Of a stretch of DNA of 64,000 nucleotides, positions 33,952 to 55,560 are shown in pieces. Origin of the DNA: a virus; IMG/VR virus record IMGVR_UViG_3300034107_000273, positions 32,001 through 96,000 of that record; one strand, given 5' to 3'. Each line of letters begins with the position of its first letter. Positions within the stretch are counted from its first letter, which is position 1. The notes under the pieces are model-generated. The model was not told the origin of the DNA. It searched no databases and saw nothing but the letters and a program-made list of their open reading frames with translations. The translations under genes were made by a program, and so were the position numbers.

Positions 33952-34739
33952 TAGATTAACCCATAGTTTTTCTTTAAAGTTTCTATACTATTTACTGGCC
34001 AATAATCTAAAGATTTTGTAGGATCATTGAATGGATACTTATATTCGCCCCATCCTTCTCTTGTTCTATCTCCGCCCCACTTAGACTTAAAGTAATCATG
34101 AAGAGGTTCAATATTAATTCTTAGTCCGTCTATTGTTGCACCGCCGTCTATTTGACATGTTACATCAACTTCTGCAGCAGGGGCGTTTATTCTCATTACA
34201 TAACTTATAGGTGTGTTAGAATGTACAAACTGACTACGCCAAGAAACTTCAACATCCGAATTAGGATTGCTCATAACTTGTTCTTCAAGTATTCTGCACC
34301 TTTGATCCCAGTCACAATCATCAAAATTGTAAGGATAAAAGTTTTCATCAAAGTATCCAATTGCTGCAACCAGCTTTTTATTTATTCCAGCTAAATGCCA
34401 TCCATGCTGTGTCCTAAACATTAGACCATTAAATCCATCAAGCATATCAACTATATGAGAAAAAGGTTTATTAAATAACATTGAAGACGAAACAAAAAAG
34501 GTCCAGTCATGGTTCTTTTTTAATCCTATGTTCCATGCTCTTGCCAAACCAATATTCTCTGATTGATACTCTACTTGAAAGCCATATTTTTTTTCAAATA
34601 CTTCACACTCTCTATTACCGCTATTATCTATAAGTAAAACATTTTTATCTCGTATAGATTCCATGCAGTTGTATATTCTTTCTGTTACTCTATAAATAGG
34701 TATACAAATTAAGTAGTCAATCTTAGTATCTGTTTCCAT
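33951..34739 (-). CDS. Glycosyltransferase, GT2-like
   Basis: LIDNS, NIGLARAWNIG, GYFDENFYP. Confidence 0.75.
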   Translation of the reverse strand: METDTKIDYLICIPIYRVTERIYNCMESIRDKNVLLIDNSGNRECEVFEKKYGFQVEYQSENIGLARAWNIGLKKNHDWTFFVSSSMLFNKPFSHIVDMLDGFNGLMFRTQHGWHLAGINKKLVAAIGYFDENFYPYNFDDCDWDQRCRILEEQVMSNPNSDVEVSWRSQFVHSNTPISYVMRINAPAAEVDVTCQIDGGATIDGLRINIEPLHDYFKSKWGGDRTREGWGEYKYPFNDPTKSLDYWPVNSIETLKKNYGLI

Positions 34740-36359: not shown

Positions 36360-36401
36360 CGATTCCCCCATTTTATTATAAAACAATTGTATCATGCTTT
36401 G

Positions 36402-36474
36402 TACCCCTGGCAGGAATTGAACCTGCGACACCAGGCTTAGAAGTCCTGTGTTCTATCCACTGAACTACAGAGGT
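36402..36474 (-). tRNA. tRNA-Arg(TCT)
   Basis: Cloverleaf; anticodon loop CTTCTAA; GTTCAAT T-loop. Confidence 0.9.
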
Positions 36475-36475
36475 T

Positions 36476-36551
36476 TGGAGCGAAAGACGAGATTTGAACT
36501 CGCAACATCTACCTTGGCAAGGTAGTACTCTACCAATTGAGTTACTTCCGC
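36476..36551 (-). tRNA. tRNA-Gly(GCC)
   Basis: Cloverleaf; loop TTGCCAA; encoded CCA. Confidence 0.92.
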
Positions 36552-36555
36552 ATTG

Positions 36556-36628
36556 CTGGTCTGACAGGCTACGATCCTGTGACATCCGAATTAACAGTTC
36601 GGCGCTCTACCAACTGAGCTACAGACCA
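36556..36628 (-). tRNA. tRNA-Asn(GTT)
   Basis: Cloverleaf; loop CTGTTAA; atypical T-loop GATCGTAG. Confidence 0.85.
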
Positions 36629-36632
36629 CTAG

Positions 36633-36706
36633 TGCACCAGGTAGGACTTGAACCTACGACGACCAAATTATGAGTTTGGGGCTCTAACCAACTGAGCTAC
36701 TGGAGC
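36633..36706 (-). tRNA. tRNA-CAT (Ile2 or elongator Met)
   Basis: Cloverleaf; loop CTCATAA; one acceptor-stem mismatch. Confidence 0.85.
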
Positions 36707-44405: not shown

Positions 44406-44621
44406 TTAATTATAAGGGTTGCTGTTGATTTTGACAAGTTTTGGTGGTGTGATGTTAGTCACAGGCTCCAGGGTAGGTCCCTTAGCATCTGACTCTTCTA
44501 ATAGGATAACTATACCCTCACCGTCACAGATGCAGGAAGGCTCTCTAACAAGATCTGAACAGGCAGTGATTTCAATCAGGGCATCGCAATCAATGCATAG
44601 ATAATCATACTTAGTCCACAT
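44406..44621 (-). CDS. Zn-ribbon protein
   Basis: YDYLCIDC...CIC. Confidence 0.55.
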   Translation of the reverse strand: MWTKYDYLCIDCDALIEITACSDLVREPSCICDGEGIVILLEESDAKGPTLEPVTNITPPKLVKINSNPYN

Positions 44622-44929
44622 AATCAGTCCTTACATATATCGCATAGGGATTCAATACAACAAATAGATTCAACTGAGCACCAATCGCACCAGTCTTTAT
44701 TAAGATTACAATTCATTAGTCAAAGTACCCTTCTGCCCATAAGCCCTGGAGGAAAGAATAGGTTTTAGCCAAACCTTCTCGTAATTGTTCATTAGATGAA
44801 CTATCATGAGCAAGCCCTACAAAATGGCTCATCTCATCTAAATCTGTTTTAGTATAACCTAACATTATTCCTCACATTCACATTTATAGTTTGGGTTTTG
44901 GACGGGTATTCTACAAAAAGGATGACATT

Positions 44930-45142
44930 TCATAGTAGGAAATCATCTCCCTCTATGTATCCATAGTATTCGTTATACTGTTGTTTTAGTTCAGGTGAGG
45001 CATATTGCATAAACATATTTTCTGCATAGTCTTCCCCTTGTTCTAAGTTGTTATTAGACCATTGGTCAAACAACTCTTCTGCAATTTCCTGTATCATTGC
45101 TCCTGTGATGTGTTCTGCTAGTGTGTCTATGAATTGTTCCAT
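44930..45142 (-). CDS. Acidic hypothetical protein
   Basis: AGGAG SD; promoter TTGCTT-17-TAAAAT. Confidence 0.6.
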   Translation of the reverse strand: MEQFIDTLAEHITGAMIQEIAEELFDQWSNNNLEQGEDYAENMFMQYASPELKQQYNEYYGYIEGDDFLL

Positions 45143-45263
45143 TTTTTCTCCTATGGTAGTTATGATATTAATTTTACAGGAAAACTGGGAAAAAAGCAAC
45201 TCCTACGTAATAAAGTTTTTAATGAATGTTTATATTATGTAAAGTGCCCCCGAGCCGTTTTCC

Positions 45264-45340
45264 TGGCGATCCGTACGAGACTTGAACTCGTGACCTCTAC
45301 CGTGACAGGGTAGCGCTCTAACCAACTGAGCTAACGGACC
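45264..45340 (-). tRNA. tRNA-Asp(GTC)
   Basis: Cloverleaf; loop CTGTCAC; encoded CCA. Confidence 0.92.
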
Positions 45341-45383
45341 AATAAGGTGAGCAGTTTTAAATCTTGCTCAGGATTTTTTTTAG

Positions 45384-46400
45384 TTATGCAATCTGCATTA
45401 CGTTTTGCACAACTTTTAGCAAACGATTTTTTTCTGCGTTAATTGCAGGGTCAAAACCACTTGCACTAGCAAGAATACTTTCGTTATTCCCACCACGTGC
45501 AGAACGATACCAGTCAAGGCGTTCTGTTAGTGCATTGAAAGCACCCCATGCGTTACCAGCAATCATGCCGTTAAACTCGCCTGTATAAATGTCGTTAATA
45601 ACATCTACCTTGTTTTCCCATTTCTTGAAAGCACCCTTTGAGTCCTTTTCAGGCTTAGGGTATGCAGAAAGGATAATGTCATTGAAAGACTTAGCATTGA
45701 CTTCTTTTTCAATCATTGCCTTAGCCATGATGTCAAATTCATCCATGTAAGCATTAGCAAGACCAAGAGTCTGTCGTGCAATAGCAACCTTACCGCTTGC
45801 TGTCTGTGTGTGACGTATCTTGAAAGATTGCTTGATACCATTCTTACGCTTTTTCTGATTAAGTGCAAGATTGAGAGTGTTAGCGCACACAACACGAACA
45901 GGTGTAATGCTTGCTTGAATAGCGATAGAGCCGTCATGTGATGTGTTGATAAGTAAATAAGTCTTTACCTTATCTGCAACACCGCTAGGGTCTAGAACAG
46001 TTTCACGCTCTAGTGCTAGTGCGCCAAATACTACACGACCGCCCTTGATTGAGCCAGCAGTTTCCCAACGACCTCCGCCGTCTAGAATGTTATCACCAAA
46101 TGAGAACAAGTCCTCATTCTGCATAACGTGGTAACGCTCACCAACGACACCAAGAATGTCTGTCTGAGAGTTGTCAGTAGGATTGGTACGCAATACATAC
46201 TGATAGTTTTTATCGCTTGTTAAGTGTGATGGAGTTTGCAAATCCTCTAGACGAACATTCCACCCATTGAGGTTAGCAAGAGCCAACATCTCTGATGTGT
46301 TTTTTTCCTCTGTAAAGACTGTACCCAATCCATGCCATGCAGGCTCTCTAAATGAAGCAAAAGAGGTCTTGCCGTTTTGTATTTCTAGGTCATGTGCCAT
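45384..46400 (-). CDS. DUF932 (TIGR03299-like) phage/plasmid protein
   Basis: PAWHGLG, WETAGSIKGG, SHDGS, PVRVVCANTL. Confidence 0.88.
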   Translation of the reverse strand: MAHDLEIQNGKTSFASFREPAWHGLGTVFTEEKNTSEMLALANLNGWNVRLEDLQTPSHLTSDKNYQYVLRTNPTDNSQTDILGVVGERYHVMQNEDLFSFGDNILDGGGRWETAGSIKGGRVVFGALALERETVLDPSGVADKVKTYLLINTSHDGSIAIQASITPVRVVCANTLNLALNQKKRKNGIKQSFKIRHTQTASGKVAIARQTLGLANAYMDEFDIMAKAMIEKEVNAKSFNDIILSAYPKPEKDSKGAFKKWENKVDVINDIYTGEFNGMIAGNAWGAFNALTERLDWYRSARGGNNESILASASGFDPAINAEKNRLLKVVQNVMQIA

Positions 46401-46625
46401 GAGTTTATTTTCCTTTTCTTTTTGTAGTTATTTTAAGTATAGCAGGATAGGCTGACAAATGCAAAGCGGGATAGTTAAAAATGGGAAAAAATGGGGATTA
46501 TTTTAATGTGTCGTAAATCACAGTGTGAGCTTGATCACGCCCCCCGAGCCGCTTTTTTATGCAACGGCATAAATAAAAATAAGGAGCAGTTTTAAAACAT
46601 GCTCAGGTTTATTAGTAGCCCCCTA

Positions 46626-47057
46626 CTAAATACTTACTCTCTCAATGGAAGAGGATAGGTATTGAACTGAGTCTGAACTATAATCAACAGTATCAAAATC
46701 AATTTCATGAATTAAGTTTTGTGCCTCTTCTTCATTACGTGCATTAACTGTAATTGAATACTGAACTTCAACTTCTAGTTCAAATTCTTTTGTTAATTCA
46801 AAACCGCAAATGTCTGCAATTTCTTGTGCTTCTGACTCATTAAGCGTACCTGCTTCAATGGCTTCAAAGGTCCATTCTTGCATTGCTTCTACCATACGAT
46901 TATGCTCTGCTGCTAAGCCGTATGAACGTTGTGTTACTACGCTGATGTGCTTTTCTAGTTCATCTATGCGTGTTTTGTTTGATGCTAACTGTGACTCAAG
47001 GAATTCTCTTGTCAAGTACATTGGCTTTTCTGTTGTTTCTGTGATTGGTTGGTCCAT
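46626..47057 (-). CDS. Hypothetical protein
   Basis: Own promoter; VNARNEEEA domain. Confidence 0.65.
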   Translation of the reverse strand: MDQPITETTEKPMYLTREFLESQLASNKTRIDELEKHISVVTQRSYGLAAEHNRMVEAMQEWTFEAIEAGTLNESEAQEIADICGFELTKEFELEVEVQYSITVNARNEEEAQNLIHEIDFDTVDYSSDSVQYLSSSIERVSI

Positions 47058-47121
47058 AAGGGCTACCTCTTTCTGTTAGTTGTTTAGTTTAATTGTACTG
47101 CAGGGCACTGACAAATGTCAA

Positions 47122-47619
47122 TTACCAAGATGATGCATAAGAAAATGACAACTTATCAATTTCTGGTAGGGCAAATAGGCGTTCTAATTGACGGATAGTA
47201 TTCTTGATATCATTCCAATACCATTCATCAATATCTGTACCACCAAAGAAAAATCCTGCTTGTGGTGGAAATAGGCTAGGGTCTTTAGTTTCTAGCGCAT
47301 GCTTACACAGTGCAAGCAATTCTATTAGTTTATCTTGTGAGACATAGTAGTCTCCACAGTCATCAATACCATTCTGAACATTCTTGACAAACCAAGCATG
47401 TATCTGATTAGCCTTGCGCCAATAAGCACAGGTAACTTCTACACTTGCTCCATAGATATCTGTTGCAACATCTGTGAGTTGTGTCAATGCCATTAGGTCA
47501 TTGAACTTAGGATATACGGCTTCAGGTGATGAATAAGATAATTCATCATTTGCTTGGAGCGCTTTCCAATTAATTTTTTCTAAATGCTTCTTAGCACTAA
47601 GGTACATGTCTAATCCCAT
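47122..47619 (-). CDS. Conserved phage hypothetical protein
   Basis: MGLDMYL, YWRKANQIHAWF, GFFFGG. Confidence 0.75.
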   Translation of the reverse strand: MGLDMYLSAKKHLEKINWKALQANDELSYSSPEAVYPKFNDLMALTQLTDVATDIYGASVEVTCAYWRKANQIHAWFVKNVQNGIDDCGDYYVSQDKLIELLALCKHALETKDPSLFPPQAGFFFGGTDIDEWYWNDIKNTIRQLERLFALPEIDKLSFSYASSW

Positions 47620-47887
47620 GGGGGCTTCCTTCTTTCTGTTGTTCTGATATTAATATAATTCTAGCAGGTTGGACTGACAAATGCCAATCGTAAATCCTGG
47701 GATCTTAAATAGTGGTACGTAAAGGGTGTGATTAAATTCACATGAGCTCGGGGGCAAAAAGTGAACAGTTTTAATTCATGTTCAGGAATGCACCGCCTCG
47801 CTATAGCACTGGCAGTAACTTTGTTGAGCAGTTTTGCAACCTACTCAGGTTGTTTGGGTTCAGGACTTTAATTGCCTCCCAAATTAT

Positions 47888-48310
47888 TTAGAGATAACGA
47901 GCAACCGCATTGTAAGTGCTTGTGCTAACTACTTCCTCATCTGTCATCTTTAGGATACGAATAGCATTAGAGATTTCCTCTTTCTGCTCACGATAGTTAT
48001 AAACAGAGATTGACTCAAAATCCCTCTCAGGCTCTTTAGGTAAATCCTTGTCTGATACTGTTAGGTCGTAGTCAATGTTGAGAGTGTTGTTCCAGTTGCG
48101 ATAGTTAGTGCGAAAGTTTTCAGCCTTCTTGATGTTAGCAACCGCATAGTCGCTAATCTCTTTCTGCCAAGCCTTACGCAACTTTTCATACTTTGCTTCG
48201 TTTGCTTCTTGTGATGCGTAGTCTGCTTCTAGTTTAGCAAGTGCTACTTCTAGTGCCTTGATTACCTTTGGTGTTGCTATCTTTACTGAGATTGCTTTTT
48301 GACGTGCCAT
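47888..48310 (-). CDS. Hypothetical protein
   Basis: Own promoter. Confidence 0.65.
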   Translation of the reverse strand: MARQKAISVKIATPKVIKALEVALAKLEADYASQEANEAKYEKLRKAWQKEISDYAVANIKKAENFRTNYRNWNNTLNIDYDLTVSDKDLPKEPERDFESISVYNYREQKEEISNAIRILKMTDEEVVSTSTYNAVARYL

Positions 48311-48416
48311 GTGTTTTTCTCTTTTCTTTGGTGGGTTATTTATAGTATAGGGGTTGGGTGTGACATTTTTAGTGTGAGCAGTTTTAATTCATACTCAGGA
48401 ATAAGCAATTAACTAG

Positions 48417-48584
48417 TTACGCTTGGGCTTTCCATGTTGTCCAGCGTGTGTTGCCATTAACGTCTAACTTAACACGAACTGTATCCTTTGATGTTGGTGC
48501 GATTTCAAGGATTGTTCCTGTTACCTTTGACTTTTGTGATGTGTAGAGGTCGCCTACCTTGTATGTGTTTGTTGCTACTGTCAT
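48417..48584 (-). CDS. Small SH3/KOW-like protein
   Basis: YKVGD...TGTILEI; AGGAG SD. Confidence 0.55.
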   Translation of the reverse strand: MTVATNTYKVGDLYTSQKSKVTGTILEIAPTSKDTVRVKLDVNGNTRWTTWKAQA

Positions 48585-48771
48585 TTTATTTCTCCTTTTT
48601 AGTTTGTTGTATGTATTAAGTATAACATTTCCCACTGACATTTTTCAACTCCATTTCTGTTATTTCTCACTATTTGAGACGCTTGCGGGTGTGATGTAGG
48701 TCACTATTGGTAAATCAGGAACACTAATAGGGCTATTATGAATAGCGGAATTATGCTTTCCATTTATCTCC

Positions 48772-49494
48772 TTACTTTTTACTTGATGAGAATACAACGT
48801 CACTCTTTGAGTATACACAAAGTGAGCAAGAAACGCAAGCGGAGCCTTGTTGAGAGATTAGGGGAATGGCTTTTTTATTCTCAGGACACTTTGCCCCTAC
48901 CTTGCCAATCATCTCTTTCATGTCTGCTTGTCCTACTTGAAAGTTTTTTGCGAGGTATGCAAGACGAATACCATGATCTGTTTTAAGACCAATACCTATA
49001 GCCTTGTTTTCGCTATCTGTAGAATAGTATAAAGATAGATTAGGAATATCTTTAAGCATTACCGCTGCACTCTTCACTCTTGTATAAACCCAGAATTGAA
49101 TTTCAGGATTATTAAGGATGACATGCTTCCATGCGAATGTATAAGTATCATTAAAGAAGTCGCCGTCCCAATGAATACGGAATAGCATAGGGGCTTCACG
49201 CTTTACACAATCAGCCTTGAAGTCTGCAATCATCTCTTCAAGCAATGCTTCAATAGTATCATGATCAGCGTCTTTAACTAATTCCCAATTATGTAATAGG
49301 TTTTTCTTTACTGTTGGGAATACCTTTTCCAATTTGCCTGCATAGCAAACACTCTCGCAGACACTCGTTGCGCCAGGACATGAATAGTTTTTTCCTGCAG
49401 GTAGTCCAAAGGTGTTGGCGATACTTGCTTGTTTTCCATTAGGGGTGACGGCATTAGCGACCTTTCTGTCTTTGCTTCTGAGTAGTTTAGTCAT
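48772..49494 (-). CDS. Gp88-like Fe-S (radical-SAM-like) phage protein
   Basis: FGLPAG..SCPGA..CESVCYA, FRIHWDGDF, WVYTR. Confidence 0.7.
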   Translation of the reverse strand: MTKLLRSKDRKVANAVTPNGKQASIANTFGLPAGKNYSCPGATSVCESVCYAGKLEKVFPTVKKNLLHNWELVKDADHDTIEALLEEMIADFKADCVKREAPMLFRIHWDGDFFNDTYTFAWKHVILNNPEIQFWVYTRVKSAAVMLKDIPNLSLYYSTDSENKAIGIGLKTDHGIRLAYLAKNFQVGQADMKEMIGKVGAKCPENKKAIPLISQQGSACVSCSLCVYSKSDVVFSSSKK

Positions 49495-49723
49495 GGTGGG
49501 TTACTCGCTTTCTTTCTTTAATTTTAGCATTTGGGACTGACATTTTTTTCTATTGTATTTCTTTTTATTTGGAACAGCTGAGGCTGCATTAGAACGGCGA
49601 AGTTCCATTAACCTTCTTAATTCCTCAGAATTTTTCTTCATAACTTAATCTTATCAGAAATGGGAAAAAATATCAAATCTCTTAAATGTGATCAATCTCA
49701 CAGGGCCCCCTCGGGCCGTTTTT

Positions 49724-49957
49724 TCAATCTAAATAAACGTACCAATCAACTTCATCATCAAATGCAAACTGAACAATTTCTGATTCACCAAAATCATTTG
49801 TTATTTGAATGTCATAGTTATCTCCTGTTGAATCACTTTCAATAAAAGTAATTTCAACAATCTCATCACCATAACCAATTAGATCCCCAATCTGTAGTGC
49901 ATCTACAGTTAGCGAATCTGCTTTGACTAGTTCCATGTCAATCATTGTAGCACTCAT
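49724..49957 (-). CDS. Acidic hypothetical protein
   Basis: LQIGDLI; GGAG SD. Confidence 0.55.
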   Translation of the reverse strand: MSATMIDMELVKADSLTVDALQIGDLIGYGDEIVEITFIESDSTGDNYDIQITNDFGESEIVQFAFDDEVDWYVYLD

Positions 49958-50098
49958 TTAGATAAACTCCGCTAAATCTCTATCCATTATTTCATTCATG
50001 TCCACTCCTTGAGTTTCTGCTATGGCTTCCCATAGGTCTGATTCTGTATAGTTTCCATCAGGATACCATTCTGCTAAAAGTGAGTATAAGTCTGTCAT

Positions 50099-50422
50099 TT
50101 ATTCTAATCCCAATCCTAATTCATAGCCTGCATCTTCTTCCCAATAGTCTGCCTCATCTTGTGGCAACCATGGGTCTAAGTGGTGTTGTTCAATAATTGC
50201 AAACGCTGGAGCGTGGCTCATTCCCTTATAGAATACTCCGTCTGGCATCGCAATCTGGCGCATGGCATCATTTTCATGGTATGCGTCAATAGCATCTATG
50301 CAAGGCTGAACCATGCTTAGTGGTACTGGTGGATAGTGATTACCTTGTAAGTGATAACCAATAGCCTGTTCAAGTGTTATGTCTAGGTTTTCTGCTAAGT
50401 CCATCGCTGTATTGTATCCCAT
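50099..50422 (-). CDS. Hypothetical protein
   Basis: HLQGNHYPPVP. Confidence 0.65.
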   Translation of the reverse strand: MGYNTAMDLAENLDITLEQAIGYHLQGNHYPPVPLSMVQPCIDAIDAYHENDAMRQIAMPDGVFYKGMSHAPAFAIIEQHHLDPWLPQDEADYWEEDAGYELGLGLE

Positions 50423-50640
50423 TATCGTGTTACCACCATTCCTGTTTTGTAGAAAGTTTTTGTGTGCATTTTGCCTGAAGGTTCAGACAAGTTAATTGTT
50501 GAGTATTCATTAGCAAGTCCATGGTCAATAAACTTTTGATAAACTTCAACGGCAGATAGGCAATCGCTATAACGACCAACCCAAGTAGTAGTAGGGTCTG
50601 AGTCATAGGTACAAGTGACTGAGTATAGGTATTCGTTCAT
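50422..50640 (-). CDS. Hypothetical protein
   Basis: Coupled ORF. Confidence 0.6.
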   Translation of the reverse strand: MNEYLYSVTCTYDSDPTTTWVGRYSDCLSAVEVYQKFIDHGLANEYSTINLSEPSGKMHTKTFYKTGMVVTR

Positions 50641-50831
50641 TAGTTATTCTCCTTATAGTTTTCGTTCATTATACTTTCAGCATACCATGCACAGTATTCA
50701 TTTTCAAGCGACACGCCCTTGTTGCAATCGCAAAATTCTGAGTCGTATTCCTCGCCACCATTACCAAAAAAGAGGACACCCTCATCATGGCAATCAACGC
50801 AATCAACCAAAAAGTCTAGTAAGTTTCCCAT
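50640..50831 (-). CDS. Small Cys-rich protein
   Basis: CVDC...CDC. Confidence 0.6.
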   Translation of the reverse strand: MGNLLDFLVDCVDCHDEGVLFFGNGGEEYDSEFCDCNKGVSLENEYCAWYAESIMNENYKENN

Positions 50832-50835
50832 TTAT

Positions 50836-51045
50836 TTATTCTCCAATCTTTACGGCTACTGTAGCCCAAAAGTCTTTTATGCCACGTGTTGGCGATACCT
50901 GAATTGCATACGCCTCAAAGTCTGAGCCGTACCAAACTGAGTCACGCTTTTCAGCATGAACAACAACACCCTCATCATGGCGAGAGTGTGAGCGATAGTA
51001 TTTTCCTACTAGTAGGCTTTCTATTGTATAAGGTTTTGCTGACAT
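50836..51045 (-). CDS. Hypothetical protein
   Basis: First gene after the promoter at 51090. Confidence 0.6.
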   Translation of the reverse strand: MSAKPYTIESLLVGKYYRSHSRHDEGVVVHAEKRDSVWYGSDFEAYAIQVSPTRGIKDFWATVAVKIGE

Positions 51046-51273
51046 TAGCAACCTGCTTTCTTTTTGTTTATTTAACTTATTACTCTGTAATCCTATCATG
51101 CGAGGCAGACAAAAAACTAATTACTAGCGAGTAATCTTAAATAGTGAGACGCTCAGAAAATGTGAGAAAAATCACAACCACGTAAAGTTATCCACAAGAG
51201 CCTGTGGAAAACCCCCCGAGCTTTTTTATTTGAAAAGATCAAGCAGTTTTAAAACTTGCTTAGGTTTTTTATT

Positions 51274-51480
51274 TTATTTTAGTAAAGCGTGTAATTCTGG
51301 CAGTTGGCAAATTTCTTTTGTGCAAGCATCATAGAATTTATTTTCATCAAATCTAGGATTGTCTGCACTGAACCATTCACTGAATTCAAAAATTAAATCT
51401 TGAAAAGTTTTTAATTCAATTTCATTTGCAAACTGATTTAGAATTTTTGCAGTTTCAACGTAGTCTTTACGTGTCATCAT
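51274..51480 (-). CDS. Hypothetical protein
   Basis: MTRKDY...DNPRFD. Confidence 0.65.
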   Translation of the reverse strand: MMTRKDYVETAKILNQFANEIELKTFQDLIFEFSEWFSADNPRFDENKFYDACTKEICQLPELHALLK

Positions 51481-51640
51481 TATAGGCTCACCAATTTTTC
51501 TACATAGTGTGAAATTTGATTGTATGCATTAGCGCATTGATAACAATAAGTCTCAGTAGGAATTCCACCAAGCATTAGCGCATCAATTCCTGAATAAACC
51601 AACTCTGTTGAGTTGCAATTAATTACTTGACACTCTTTCA

Positions 51641-51844
51641 TTATTCTGCCACCTTTAGAATTGCGTATGAGCCATTTTTATTTATTTCATCAAGAATAGG
51701 TTGCAAGCGTGAGCCAACCAATTCCTTTAGCATTTCTTCAAGCATTTGGACTTGCTCTTGCTTAGGAAGTGCAGCCATTGCCAGTGTGATAGGGTGTCCT
51801 GATTTGAATTCTGTTACGAATTTTAGATTATGTTCAACGTTCAT
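51641..51844 (-). CDS. Hypothetical protein
   Basis: ORF in operon context. Confidence 0.55.
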   Translation of the reverse strand: MNVEHNLKFVTEFKSGHPITLAMAALPKQEQVQMLEEMLKELVGSRLQPILDEINKNGSYAILKVAE

Positions 51845-51863
51845 TTATTTTATTTCCTATTCT

Positions 51864-52061
51864 TTAGTTTGAGTTAGTAAGTGTGCGAGTGCCACGTAGT
51901 GTTCCTGTAACACCTAGGGCATCACAAGATAGTTTTACAGATACGCCAACAGGTAATTGTGTTGGGTATTGTGAGATGAATTGAGCAACAGCACCTTGTG
52001 AGGCGAAGTTGATTTTTTTTGTTGAACCTGAAAAGGTTTCTAGTGTTACAGTGTAAGTCAT
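51864..52061 (-). CDS. Hypothetical protein
   Basis: GGGAG SD; own promoter. Confidence 0.6.
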   Translation of the reverse strand: MTYTVTLETFSGSTKKINFASQGAVAQFISQYPTQLPVGVSVKLSCDALGVTGTLRGTRTLTNSN

Positions 52062-53896
52062 TAAGTGACTCCCTTTCGTTTGTTTGATAAGACTATCTTA
52101 CCATTTGGGGCTGACAAATTAGGGCATTTATTTGCTAGGCTCATTGTGATTTGCATCACACTTATTTGCTAGGCTCACTGCCTTATTTATCTTTATTTAA
52201 TTGTTATACCTACAAGGGTACCAGATAAGTTTCAGGAAGTCAAAACGACACGCCGTAAAATGGGAAAAAATTTGTGTGACCTTAAACACATAAGTTATAC
52301 ACAGCCTGTGGAAAACGCCTCGGGCCGTTTTTTATGCATGGATCTGAATTTTTATAAATTAGATTTCCAATAAATAAAACCAAACACAATCATTGCAATC
52401 ATTACAACCAACATTTTTTATTCTCTTTCTAATTCTGTGTAATCAACAACAACAAAATCAAGTCGTTCCAATGGAATAACTTTTAACCAAGATAGTGCAG
52501 ACTCAAAGTTATCATCCTCAATGGTGACGGATAAATCAAAATTAAAAACTGGCATTATTTATTCTCCTTATAAAGAAAGTCCCACGCCTTACGGCATAAC
52601 ACAATTGAATTGCAATTGTCACAACAGATAACACCATGCTCATTTAATTCTAAATCATACATGTCAATCATGGCAGTTACTGCACCACATACAGATTTTA
52701 CAGGCACATAGGTACTCATTATTTCTCACACTCACATTCTAAAGCAGATAGGTCAAAGTCGCAATGCTTGCAACCTTGAAACAAAAAGTGTTCATTGCAA
52801 TAAATTGCAGTTTGCATTTCCTCGCAACACAAGAATTGTTTTGTGCCACGCAAAAAGACATTTGTTAAAGACATAGGGAAAAGGACAAGTGTAGGGGTAC
52901 TCATTAGTTACTCACATACCAATCTGTCCATGTAGGGAATTGTTCAGGGTCACTATCATAGTAGTAACGCTCAATGTTATTTTCACAATCCATGCAGAAA
53001 GTAAATTGTTCATCTCCAATTTCAGAGATAGCGGAAAGCATAGGTTTATGCTCATGTGTTTTTGTTAATGTAGTCATTTTATGACCACCTTTCTTTAGCG
53101 GATTTCTTTACCACTTTTATTTTCTTATACTGCAAGTATAGCCTATAAGTCTGACATTTATCAACCTACTAGCCAGTAATTCCAGATAGTGAGACGCTCA
53201 AGTAATGTGATAAAGGACACACTTACTTAAAGTTATCCACAGAAGTTATCCACAGGCGCCCCGAGCAAAAAATCGCAGCTTTTTATTTCTGCGATCTTTT
53301 TTTATTTATAAATTACTTTGCGAATAAATAAAACCAAAAACAATAAATGCAATCATCACAACTAACAATTTATTTCTCCTCAATTTCATCTAGTAGATCC
53401 CATAGTGCAGTTTCTAATTCTTTAGAAACTAAATCTAATTTTTCTTGTAGTGTTTTCATTCTGCATTCTCCAATTCATTTATGTCTGCGACATAGACATT
53501 GTTTTTATTTATTCCATAGTTTAATTGGAATTCAAATACAGTGATAGCCTCATCATAGGAATCAGCCTCAACGTTTATGAAAGTATTAAATTCAAATGTA
53601 GCCATTCTTTATTCTCCCTTTATAGTGTTTTTCCGCAGTGGTTACAAGGTTTTCCTTGGTGGTCTATGCTAAGGGCATCATAGTTTGTGCCCTTCCAACA
53701 ATGGTGGCATACGATTACAAAGTCCATTATTCTGTTACCGCCTTATCTGTTATCATTTTAAGAATTAACTGTAACTGTTCTGTAGTTAGTAGTGCTTGAG
53801 CGCAACCCCAAGCAAATGAAAGCGCAAGCGCACTATCTCCATAGTGCTCATTAGCAAGAGTGTTTATCTCTTGCGTTATCTCAAAATTAGTTTTCA

Positions 53897-53992
53897 TTAT
53901 TTATTTTCTTCTTTCTTTAGTAGTGATAGGGCAAGGGCAAGACTTTGCTTGCGCTGGGCTTCTACGTGAGCCTTGTATTCTTCAAGTGTCAT
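53897..53992 (-). CDS. 31-aa microprotein, copy 1
   Basis: MTLEEYKAHVEAQRKQSLALALSLLKKEENK; GAAAGG SD. Confidence 0.7.
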   Translation of the reverse strand: MTLEEYKAHVEAQRKQSLALALSLLKKEENK

Positions 53993-54243
53993 TTATCTGA
54001 CCTTTCTTTTTCTTTATACTGTAATTGTAGCATGGGGGTCTGACAAATTGGGGGATATCCATGGGCGTGTCGTAGAATTATTTTTGTGATGTTGGTCACA
54101 AACGGCCCGAGCAAAATTTGCAGCTGTTACACTGCAAATCTTTTTTTACTTATTGCCAAACATGTTAAATATTTCATCAACCTGTTCATCAGTTAAGTGA
54201 TCTAACTGAATTGCTTTTTCAAATTCAAAGAAATCTTTTTCCA

Positions 54244-54438
54244 TTATTCTGTTTCCTCGTTTTCTTCTAGTGCATCTTGAAAGTCATAGAGTGCCTCATT
54301 GTATGCGATTGGGTCGCACTCTTTTAGTATTTGCGAAGGGTAAAAAGTTAATTGTCCTATAGTTACAACAGGATAAGAATCATCTAGCATTTCATCAAAT
54401 AATTCTTTACTAGCGAAAGCCATTTCAAAATCTAACAT
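54244..54438 (-). CDS. Acidic phage hypothetical protein
   Basis: FDEMLD...PSQILKECDPIAY. Confidence 0.65.
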   Translation of the reverse strand: MLDFEMAFASKELFDEMLDDSYPVVTIGQLTFYPSQILKECDPIAYNEALYDFQDALEENEETE

Positions 54439-54584
54439 TAGTTTTCTTCTTTCTGTAGTAGGTAAGTATTAGTTAGGGAACGATTATTATTTGAGAACAT
54501 AGACTCTATAACCGCTTTATCTTTTAGTGATTGAGCAATTCTTTTATCTTGTTGCTCTTTTAGAATTCTATCAAATGTGCTCAT
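54438..54584 (-). CDS. 48-aa protein, copy 1
   Basis: MSTFDRILKEQ...SMFSN...YLLQKEEN; paralog at 55414. Confidence 0.7.
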   Translation of the reverse strand: MSTFDRILKEQQDKRIAQSLKDKAVIESMFSNNNRSLTNTYLLQKEEN

Positions 54585-54676
54585 TTGTCTGAGCCTTTCT
54601 TTAGTAGGGACATGGCTTGCAAGGTGCTTGCCTTGCGTTGCGCCTCAACGTGCGCCTTGTATTCTTCTAGTGTCAT
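54581..54676 (-). CDS. 31-aa microprotein, copy 2
   Basis: MTLEEYKAHVEAQRKASTLQAMSLLKKGSDK. Confidence 0.7.
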   Translation of the reverse strand: MTLEEYKAHVEAQRKASTLQAMSLLKKGSDK

Positions 54677-55413
54677 TTATTTAACGACCTTTCTTGTTGT
54701 TTATACTAGCAATTCTAGCATGGGGGTCTGACAAATTAGCCTATTTGTTAGGGTGTGTCGTGTGTGACCTTAGTCACGCCACAGGAATGGATTACCTGTA
54801 GCCTCATAGCCGTCACGCCATGAACAGCGAGGATAGACAGTGTGACTAGAAACATAGCCACACTCTGGGCAGATAACGTTTGCTAGTCGTGAGCGCATGG
54901 TTTCATAGCCCTCTGCATTTCTATTTTCAAACAGTGAGTTCATTTGGAACTCCTTTCTTTATTTTCTTTATACTAGTATTCTAGCACCTACCACTGACAA
55001 ATTTGGAGATTTTTTGGGCGTGTCGTAGAACTATTTTTGTGATCCTCATCACATGGCCCCCGAGGCGTGTGAGCGACATCACATGCGACACGCCGTGTTT
55101 AGATTTGCTTTTGTCAGTCCTAACTGTTATACTTGCAGTATTAGATAGTTAAAGTATAACTACTAAACGAAAGGTCACTAACATGAACCCATTTACAGCA
55201 CTACAAGATTTCCTAGATGAGAATGTCGCTTACGGACTAATTGGAGCCTTCATAGGCGTAGCAGTAGCCGTTATCCTATGCCTTACGCTTGGAGCGTGAC
55301 ACACATCACACAACGCCAACGGCGTGTCGCCTTGACTTTTCAGGGTATGTATGATACCCTTACAGGTATAACAATTAAATAAGATTAACTAACTAACAAG
55401 AAAGGTGTTCAGA

Positions 55414-55560
55414 ATGAATACACTAGAAAGAATACAGAAAGAGCAAGCAGAAAAGCGTGCTATACAATCTATCAAGGACAAGGCTATTGTTGCCTCAATG
55501 TTTTCTAATACAAATCGTCCATTAAACAATCAGTACCTACTAGGTAAAGAGGAAAACTAA
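55414..55560 (+). CDS. 48-aa protein, copy 2
   Basis: MNTLERIQKEQ...SMFSN...YLLGKEEN; GAAAGG SD. Confidence 0.7.
   Translation: MNTLERIQKEQAEKRAIQSIKDKAIVASMFSNTNRPLNNQYLLGKEEN

Follow-up and report, generated by a model that had tools for sequence, protein, structure and literature searches.

Candidate Crp-type sites in helical phase with the early promoters of a 108-kb putative actinophage and its relatives

Results

Boxes and promoters in the early gene block

The stretch of DNA analyzed here, called the window, comprises 64,000 nucleotides (bases 32001–96000) of the 107,956-bp IMG/VR virus record IMGVR_UViG_3300034107_000273, which has a GC content of ~36%. It contains a block of small minus-strand early genes, and upstream of the promoters in this block lie palindromic boxes of the form TGTGA-N6-TCACA. 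Perfect boxes number eight in the window against 0.12 expected, a count reached by none of 100 shuffled sequences, and these eight, all located inside one 11-kb early stretch, are the only perfect boxes in the whole 108-kb genome. Another seven boxes with one mismatch lie within 44448–55310, and one more is located outside this region at 34301. An earlier note on this DNA had listed these eight perfect and seven one-mismatch boxes, and every one of them was found again at its coordinates. Thirteen boxes lie between genes, and the remaining two overlap the final codons of small open reading frames (ORFs; Table 1).

Each of the 15 boxes is followed downstream by a promoter-like element. In ten cases this partner is a PafBC-type promoter, TGTC[AT]G-N10-TAnnnT with a length of 22 nt (one is a TGTCTG variant and one is on the + strand), and the 22-nt geometry of the TGTCAG-N10-TAnnnT element is exactly that of the PafBC motif tGTCgg(N10)tA(N3)T with its −26 element (PMC8635444). 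The other five boxes precede sigma-A-type −35/−10 promoters, two of which drive leaderless genes. The earlier proposal that the boxes act in combination with a PafBC-like element therefore applies to ten of the 15 and does not apply to the five with sigma-A-type partners. Several of the TGTCAG promoters also contain a −35-like TTGaca 18 nt upstream of the −10 (47092–47121, 53135–53164, 48619–48648, 47658–47687, and 46436–46465); because this element is kept, the promoters may be hybrids, readable by sigma-A in the presence or absence of PafBC.

At the two leaderless genes, an arrangement typical of Actinobacteria, the minus-strand ATG sits 6 nt past the −10, and the start site was therefore placed 7 nt after the −10. 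Relative to this anchor, the box centres fall at −53.5, −64.5, −74.5/−75.5, and −83.5/−85.5, and the series extends to −95.5. All centres are thus at or upstream of −53.5, and no box overlaps a core promoter or a −35 element.

Helical phasing in the phage and its relatives

The offset of each box was defined as the distance from its 3' edge to the 3' edge of the associated −10. The values in this genome are 39, 39, 50, 50, 50, 51, 60, 60, 61, 69, 71, 71, 71, and 71, with the fifteenth box (46524) at 88; two of the offsets of 50 (boxes 55068 and 55295) belong to promoters on the + strand. The 14 offsets reported in the earlier note matched exactly upon recomputation, and a Rayleigh test on the offsets of this genome gave R = 0.85 at a period of 10 bp (p ~1e-5). 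The two copies of a TTGACT/TACCCT promoter module (52215–52243 and 55332–55360) illustrate the same stepping, as their spacers to the box differ by exactly 10 bp, the longer being at 52215–52243.

Related loci were collected from 384 IMG/VR relatives of the early 338-amino acid (aa) protein and from a composite pattern of box plus promoter, which added at least 120 further stretches. Over approximately 200 related IMG/VR loci, 1124 unique TGTCAG promoters were identified, 642 of which have a box upstream, and the offsets form sharp peaks at 40, 50, 60, 70–71, and 81. The box-to-promoter spacers were then clustered at ≤40% edit distance into 80 dissimilar families. Sixty of the 80 families are in phase, that is, within ~1 bp of 39.5 + 10.25k, and the complete set gave a Rayleigh R of 0.67 at a period of 10.0–10.25 bp, a value reached by none of 3000 random sets. 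When the analysis was confined to 86 sequences that had not been picked by spacing (85 loci selected by protein similarity and the genome itself), 30 clusters gave R = 0.68, which none of 2000 random sets reached. Stepping by one helical turn, for which the earlier note had recommended a comparison of related genomes, holds across many related genomes. Control words lacked a periodic pattern, with DnaA-like boxes being scattered and CGACACGCC occurring at one fixed position.

A second, leaderless promoter class is widespread in the relatives, in which the box is followed by ~10 nt, TTGACA, 17 or 18 nt, TGnTAAGAT, 6 nt, and the ATG. The offset in this class is 38–40 in 61 of 75 cases. The classes differ in their core elements: the PafBC-type promoters have no canonical −35 and the leaderless class has TTGACA and an extended −10.

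A phylogenetic footprint built with MAFFT was uninformative upstream of approximately −70 because modules are swapped among the relatives, and an alignment anchored on the −10 was used in its place. Short-range distances between neighbouring boxes, which could have given separate evidence of phase, had no clean period, and abutting pairs predominated among them. One such pair occupies 46507–46539 of the window; relatives commonly contain similar pairs with starts 16–17 bp apart, usually with one member in phase and the other out of phase.

Other words recur close to the boxes. DnaA-box-like words (TGTGGATAA / TTATCCACA), single or paired, are found directly upstream of boxes 53206, 51161, and 52275 (at ~53225–53262, ~51177–51215, and ~52291–52316, respectively), and their distance to the promoter is unphased across the family. 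In many cassettes, the word CGACAC(G/A)CC keeps a fixed distance of 39–40 nt to the −10 edge (~54063–54071 and ~55017–55025 in the window), and ATGTCCG recurs family-wide at 38/39, 48/49, and 55/56; both are possibly sites for further factors.

The motif and its candidate binder

A logo of 626 unique family sites reads TGTGA-t-n-T-A-n-a-TCACA, with G2, G4, C13, and C15 conserved at 98–100%. Central preferences are T at position 6 (57%) and T at position 8 (55%) in the symmetrised logo, and A at position 9 (53%) in the unsymmetrised one. This logo fits the Escherichia coli CRP consensus and the GlxR consensus TGTGANNTANNTCACA (PMC4254451, PMC4117774), and the assignment to a CRP/GlxR consensus made in the earlier note holds, including the central TA preference.

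A phage gene for such a binder was sought in two sets of ORFs. Scans of 46 early ORFs against Pfam and PHROGs returned no DNA-binding domain, and 61 other phage ORFs had no match to a DNA-binding domain among 25 listed Pfam families; no HTH_Crp_2, cyclic nucleotide (cNMP)-binding, or WYL genes were found in the phage. We therefore rejected a phage-encoded CRP, cNMP-binding, WYL, or helix-turn-helix (HTH) protein, as none was found among the 107 scanned ORFs.

The phage encodes WhiB, a hallmark of actinophages. Together with the PafBC-type promoters, this supports the actinobacterial host assumed in the earlier note. A non-actinobacterial host, initially suggested by the GC content of 36%, was rejected on the basis of WhiB, the PafBC-type promoters, and the finding that the nearest DnaE relatives are in Streptomyces phages. 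A megablast search against cultured phages gave no match, and the nearest cultured relative by DnaE is Streptomyces phage Wakanda at 55% identity. Inheritance of the boxes from Streptomyces phage relatives was likewise rejected, since Wakanda has two sites against two for the control word and hence no enrichment.

Crp, cyclases, and chromosomal sites in candidate hosts

Related phage contigs were binned in five metagenome-assembled genomes (MAGs), two of which are Actinomycetota. At a guess, based on genomes of 1.0–2.2 Mb, a GC content of ~46% at one host locus, and habitat, the candidate hosts are acI/Nanopelagicales-like. One Actinomycetota MAG (1.7 Mb) encodes a 227-aa Crp adjoining nth that matches Mycobacterium tuberculosis Crp structures (3d0s, 3mzh) with E = 1e-78 and has a conserved nucleotide pocket. 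Its recognition helix, GASRETVNKALADF, of the cognate R-E-x-x-x-K/R form, does not differ from the M. tuberculosis Crp helix and is unchanged in all six copies examined (the MAG and five orthologues). Of 41 genomes in the candidate host family, 36 encode a Crp orthologue. Two WYL-domain proteins resembling PafBC are encoded in tandem in the same MAG, and the host family uses promoters of the TTGTCRGTG type, the extension being found in 12 of 25 host matches.

The earlier note had further proposed that cyclic AMP (cAMP)-bound Crp allows the phage to read the energy state of the host, which the host genomes leave unsupported. Class III (PF00211) and class I (PF01295) adenylate cyclases were each found in none of the 41 candidate host family genomes, control genomes being positive, and the class IV-type CYTH domain (PF01928) was found in one of 41. 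The phage was searched for PF00211, which was absent. In M. tuberculosis, DNA binding by Crp depends little on cAMP (PMC2844151). Because the cyclases were not found and the M. tuberculosis protein depends so weakly on cAMP, sensing of host energy state is speculation.

In the candidate host MAG, all seven perfect boxes are on the phage contig. Across 40 host-family genomes (~57 Mb), perfect boxes number two against 12 for the control word, and perfect sites may be avoided on host chromosomes. In M. tuberculosis, enrichment of Crp in chromatin immunoprecipitation (ChIP) climbs as the number of mismatches drops (PMC4117774), from which it follows that the phage boxes would outrank all other Crp sites of an infected cell.

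The same box in unrelated actinophages

Scanning for the pattern box-N7-12-TTGACA-N18-TAnnnT retrieved at least 115 stretches; of 112 matches, 76 have a gap of exactly 10 nt between box and TTGACA. Approximately 25 of the loci, with a GC content of 0.44–0.53, contain 2–5 perfect boxes and show almost no protein similarity to the 108-kb phage; 12 of 21 such contigs encode WhiB. Complete genomes of 41.5 kb (G048) and 40.1 kb (G050) each contain three clustered perfect boxes against zero for the control word, and no CRP-family gene was found in either. No hallmark genes are common to these ~40-kb phages and the 108-kb phage. The proteins that they do have in common include a CHAP lysin, WhiB, a small zinc ribbon, and small unknown ORFs, and a Pfam search of seven of these identified no HTH. 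As the same site is found at the same position relative to the promoter in unrelated actinophages, a host factor best explains the boxes. In the ~40-kb phages (G048, G050; loci L303, L274, L333, and L290), the perfect boxes are clustered, 3–5 in number, and located 10 nt upstream of TTGACA; they are often TGTGAC-N4-GTCACA, and a GTCTTAAGAC palindrome recurs nearby. Literature searches of limited scope turned up no earlier published account of Crp sites at promoters of actinophages.

Features of the window

Table 1. Boxes and promoters in the early block. Positions are those of the window; offsets are in bp.
Feature	Position	Strand	Offset	Remarks
Sigma-A-type promoter, TTGTCA-N17-TATAAT	44409–44437	−		ATG 44402, 6 nt past −10, leaderless
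Perfect box, TGTGATGTTAGTCACA	44448–44463		39	Centre ~−53.5; overlaps 3' end of 71-aa ORF
PafBC-type promoter, TGTCAG-N10-TATACT	46436–46457	−		Upstream of 338-aa gene
One-mismatch box	46507–46522		71	Start 17 bp from start of box 46524
One-mismatch box	46524–46539		88	Out of phase; relatives often hold a perfect copy here
PafBC-type promoter, TGTCAG-N10-TAGAAT	47658–47679	−
Perfect box	47727–47742		69
PafBC-type promoter, TGTCAGTGG-N7-TATACT	48619–48640	−
One-mismatch box	48690–48705		71
Sigma-A-type promoter, TTGATA-N17-(TG)ATAAGAT	49648–49676	−		ATG 49641, 6 nt past −10, leaderless
Perfect box	49687–49702		39
Variant PafBC-type promoter, TGTCTG-N10-TAGGAT	51090–51111	−
Perfect box	51161–51176		71	DnaA-box-like word directly upstream
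PafBC-type promoter, TGTCAG-N10-TAAGAT	52095–52116	−
Perfect box	52145–52160		50
Sigma-A-type promoter, TTGACT-N17-(TGg)TACCCT	52215–52243	−		Same module as 55332–55360
One-mismatch box	52275–52290		60	Offset to TTGACT-N17-TACCCT
PafBC-type promoter	53135–53156	−
One-mismatch box	53206–53221		71	Paired DnaA-box-like words upstream
PafBC-type promoter	54024–54045	−
Perfect box	54085–54100		61
PafBC-type promoter	54712–54733	−
One-mismatch box	54763–54778		51	Overlaps stop region of 57-aa ORF
PafBC-type promoter, TGTCAGTGG-N7-TAGAAT	54978–54999	−
Perfect box	55038–55053		60	To minus promoter 54978; 80 to plus promoter 55112
Perfect box	55068–55083		50	To plus promoter 55112; 90 to minus promoter 54978
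Divergent PafBC-type promoter	55112–55133	+		Drives small + strand unit
One-mismatch box	55295–55310		50	To + promoter 55332–55360
Sigma-A-type promoter, TTGACT-N17-TACCCT	55332–55360	+

Directly upstream of many boxes are GC-rich CCCGAG/CTCGGG or bidirectional terminator-like hairpins (49704–49717, 54116–54139, and other cassette starts), and since these adjoin the boxes, the order within a cassette is terminator, box, promoter. A small divergent + strand unit with two promoters (55112–55560) is located within the minus-strand early block. It contains a 38-aa ORF (55184–55298) and a further small ORF from ~55405, and boxes 55038 and 55068 are common to this unit and the opposing promoter. The early block also contains a tRNA-Asp gene (45264–45340), and a cluster of four tRNA genes (Arg, Gly, Asn, and Met) is located nearby on the minus strand at 36401–36706.

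Discussion

Proposed function of the boxes

We propose, with a probability of roughly 0.6, that the boxes are predicted high-affinity sites for a host Crp/GlxR-type regulator upstream of early promoters, from which this regulator would modulate initiation from one face of the helix. Judged from the DNA, the feature would be a set of Crp-type upstream sites with helical-phase dependence, used by phages and placed largely on PafBC-type promoters. In the proposed mechanism, host RNA polymerase with sigma-A would read the early promoters, ten of the PafBC type with a −26 element and five with an ordinary −35/−10. A bound Crp dimer would be kept on one helix face by centres at ~−53.5, −64.5, −74.5, −85.5, and −95.5, and could modulate initiation by a face-dependent contact with RNA polymerase or by a phased DNA bend, most likely as an activator. 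The phages would thereby probably couple early expression to a global regulator of the host. The phasing, along with the association of the boxes with promoters, also bears out the contention of the earlier note that the boxes are not a pure decoy. We infer binding by Crp, activation rather than repression, and the identity of the host alike.

Several observations weigh against this proposal. The host is assigned from metagenome binning, WhiB, promoter type, and habitat. In five complete host-family genomes, boxes with ≤1 mismatch are neither enriched nor depleted, as both they and the control word occur 72 times, and a search this stringent thus does not reveal the Crp regulon of the host itself. 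Several promoters with a box are already near consensus at the −35 and have an extended −10, and would therefore not require an activator. Phasing is incomplete, with minor offset classes at 55–56 and at 62, and abutting pairs of boxes 16–17 bp apart are frequent. Among 55 unique orthologous cassettes in front of the 338-aa gene, 17 have no box at ≤1 mismatch, and perfect boxes there are often out of phase at 85–89 beside a decayed box at ~71. Given the incomplete phasing, the box-less cassettes, and the abutting pairs, the boxes look modulatory and subject to turnover rather than an obligatory part of the promoter. Small phage proteins may also carry an unrecognised DNA-binding fold. Finally, the register is unusual. 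Class I CRP sites in E. coli are centred at −61.5, −71.5, −81.5/−82.5, and −91.5/−92.5, and the phage register is 2–3 bp off these positions. It is also 5 bp from the activating CRP1 site of whiB1 at −58.5 (PMC2844151). The class I activation suggested in the earlier note is thus an analogy only, which extends to positions that repeat with the helical turn and are clear of the −35 and not to the register. Because the register departs from class I and several promoters are near consensus, activation is the most likely direction of the effect but is unproven.

Alternative explanations

The boxes could instead serve as operators of a dimeric DNA-binding protein that has CRP-like specificity and is encoded by the phage or delivered with the virion, for example a regulator of an early-to-middle switch that acts from phased positions by polymerase contact or looping. 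The phage has many small early ORFs of unknown function, and an own binder would suit boxes that are far better than any candidate host chromosomal site, that are gained and lost among close relatives, and that in abutting pairs resemble multi-operator arrangements. We consider it unlikely, however, since CRP-family, HTH, or other DNA-binding domains were found in none of the 107 scanned ORFs, the motif with its central TA is exactly the actinobacterial Crp/GlxR motif, and the same box in the same position is found in ~40-kb actinophages that have no hallmark gene in common with the 108-kb phage, with no HTH in the seven common proteins scanned with Pfam.

If host Crp is the binder, its role could be mainly to repress or time the early promoters, or the boxes could titrate Crp as a sponge. 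Boxes centred at −53.5 or farther out leave the core promoter free, upstream sites go with activation in M. tuberculosis (PMC4117774), and a sponge needs neither strict one-turn phasing nor fixed promoter distances, all of which make this explanation quite improbable despite the near-consensus sequence of many box-bearing promoters, the concentration of all perfect sites of the infected cell on the phage, the abutting or out-of-phase second boxes at 88, and the precedent of a negative upstream Crp site in whiB1 CRP2 at −37.5 (PMC2844151). That the boxes are recombination junctions or structural words of shuffling cassettes, with phasing due to shared module ancestry, would suit the mosaic cassettes, the modules swapped among relatives, and the many offsets that stem from duplicated modules, but is very improbable given that the phasing holds over 80 dissimilar spacer clusters and unrelated phage lineages, that control words have no periodic pattern, and that conservation within the box follows CRP contacts, with G2/G4 invariant and the central six bases free.

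Implications

If host Crp does bind the boxes, some of the most abundant lake actinobacterial phages link their early programme to a global regulator of the host by means of sites stronger than any on the host chromosome. A promoter grammar for hard-to-culture organisms would follow, namely a box at −53.5 plus whole turns with a sigma-A or PafBC-type core, and this grammar is testable in M. smegmatis or Corynebacterium glutamicum because the M. tuberculosis Crp helix is the same and relatives read the same consensus. The proposal also raises the question of which signal is sensed by a conserved, pocket-intact Crp in hosts without a detected class I/III cyclase (G001-G042). A broader and distinctly tentative extension is that several unrelated freshwater actinophage lineages use consensus-strength host Crp sites as a general, helix-phase-locked promoter element, in which Crp would serve as a ligand-independent or non-cAMP platform that allows the phages to out-compete the promoters of streamlined hosts; combined with PafBC sigma adaptation, this could constitute a two-input gate in the 108-kb lineage.

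Comparison with known systems

Like the phage boxes, the sites at E. coli class I promoters are 16-bp palindromes located upstream and clear of the −35, with the one-turn repeats running from ~−53 to ~−95 in the phage. In addition to the shift in register of 2–3 bp, the phages differ in that the very common position −53.5/−54.5 has no E. coli counterpart, the partner promoters are mostly of the PafBC type with a −26 element, the sites are perfect and phage-borne, and cAMP dependence is doubtful. C. glutamicum GlxR has a consensus, TGTGANNTANNTCACA, that agrees with the phage logo, including the central TA preference (PMC4254451). GlxR is strongly cAMP-dependent and an adenylate cyclase is present in C. 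glutamicum, whereas class I/III cyclases were not found in the candidate host family.

The M. tuberculosis system, in which Crp (Rv3676) acts at the whiB1 promoter from an activating site at −58.5 and a repressing CRP2 site at −37.5 (PMC2844151) and upstream Crp sites are associated with activation (PMC4117774), can be likened to what is proposed for the phage boxes in its upstream activating site, weak cAMP dependence, and tandem sites (PMC2844151, PMC4117774). Chromosomal Crp sites in M. tuberculosis are mostly imperfect, unlike those of the phage, and PMC2844151 and PMC4117774 describe no phage promoters; the regulator itself has the recognition helix of the candidate host Crp, the two matching with E = 1e-78. 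No upstream Crp co-site is described for the PafBC promoters in PMC8635444, and several of the phage copies additionally contain the −35-like TTGaca. Nevertheless, ten phage partner promoters match the PafBC-dependent (RecA-NDp) promoters and their sigma adaptation (PMC8635444), and the WYL pair of the candidate hosts resembles PafBC.

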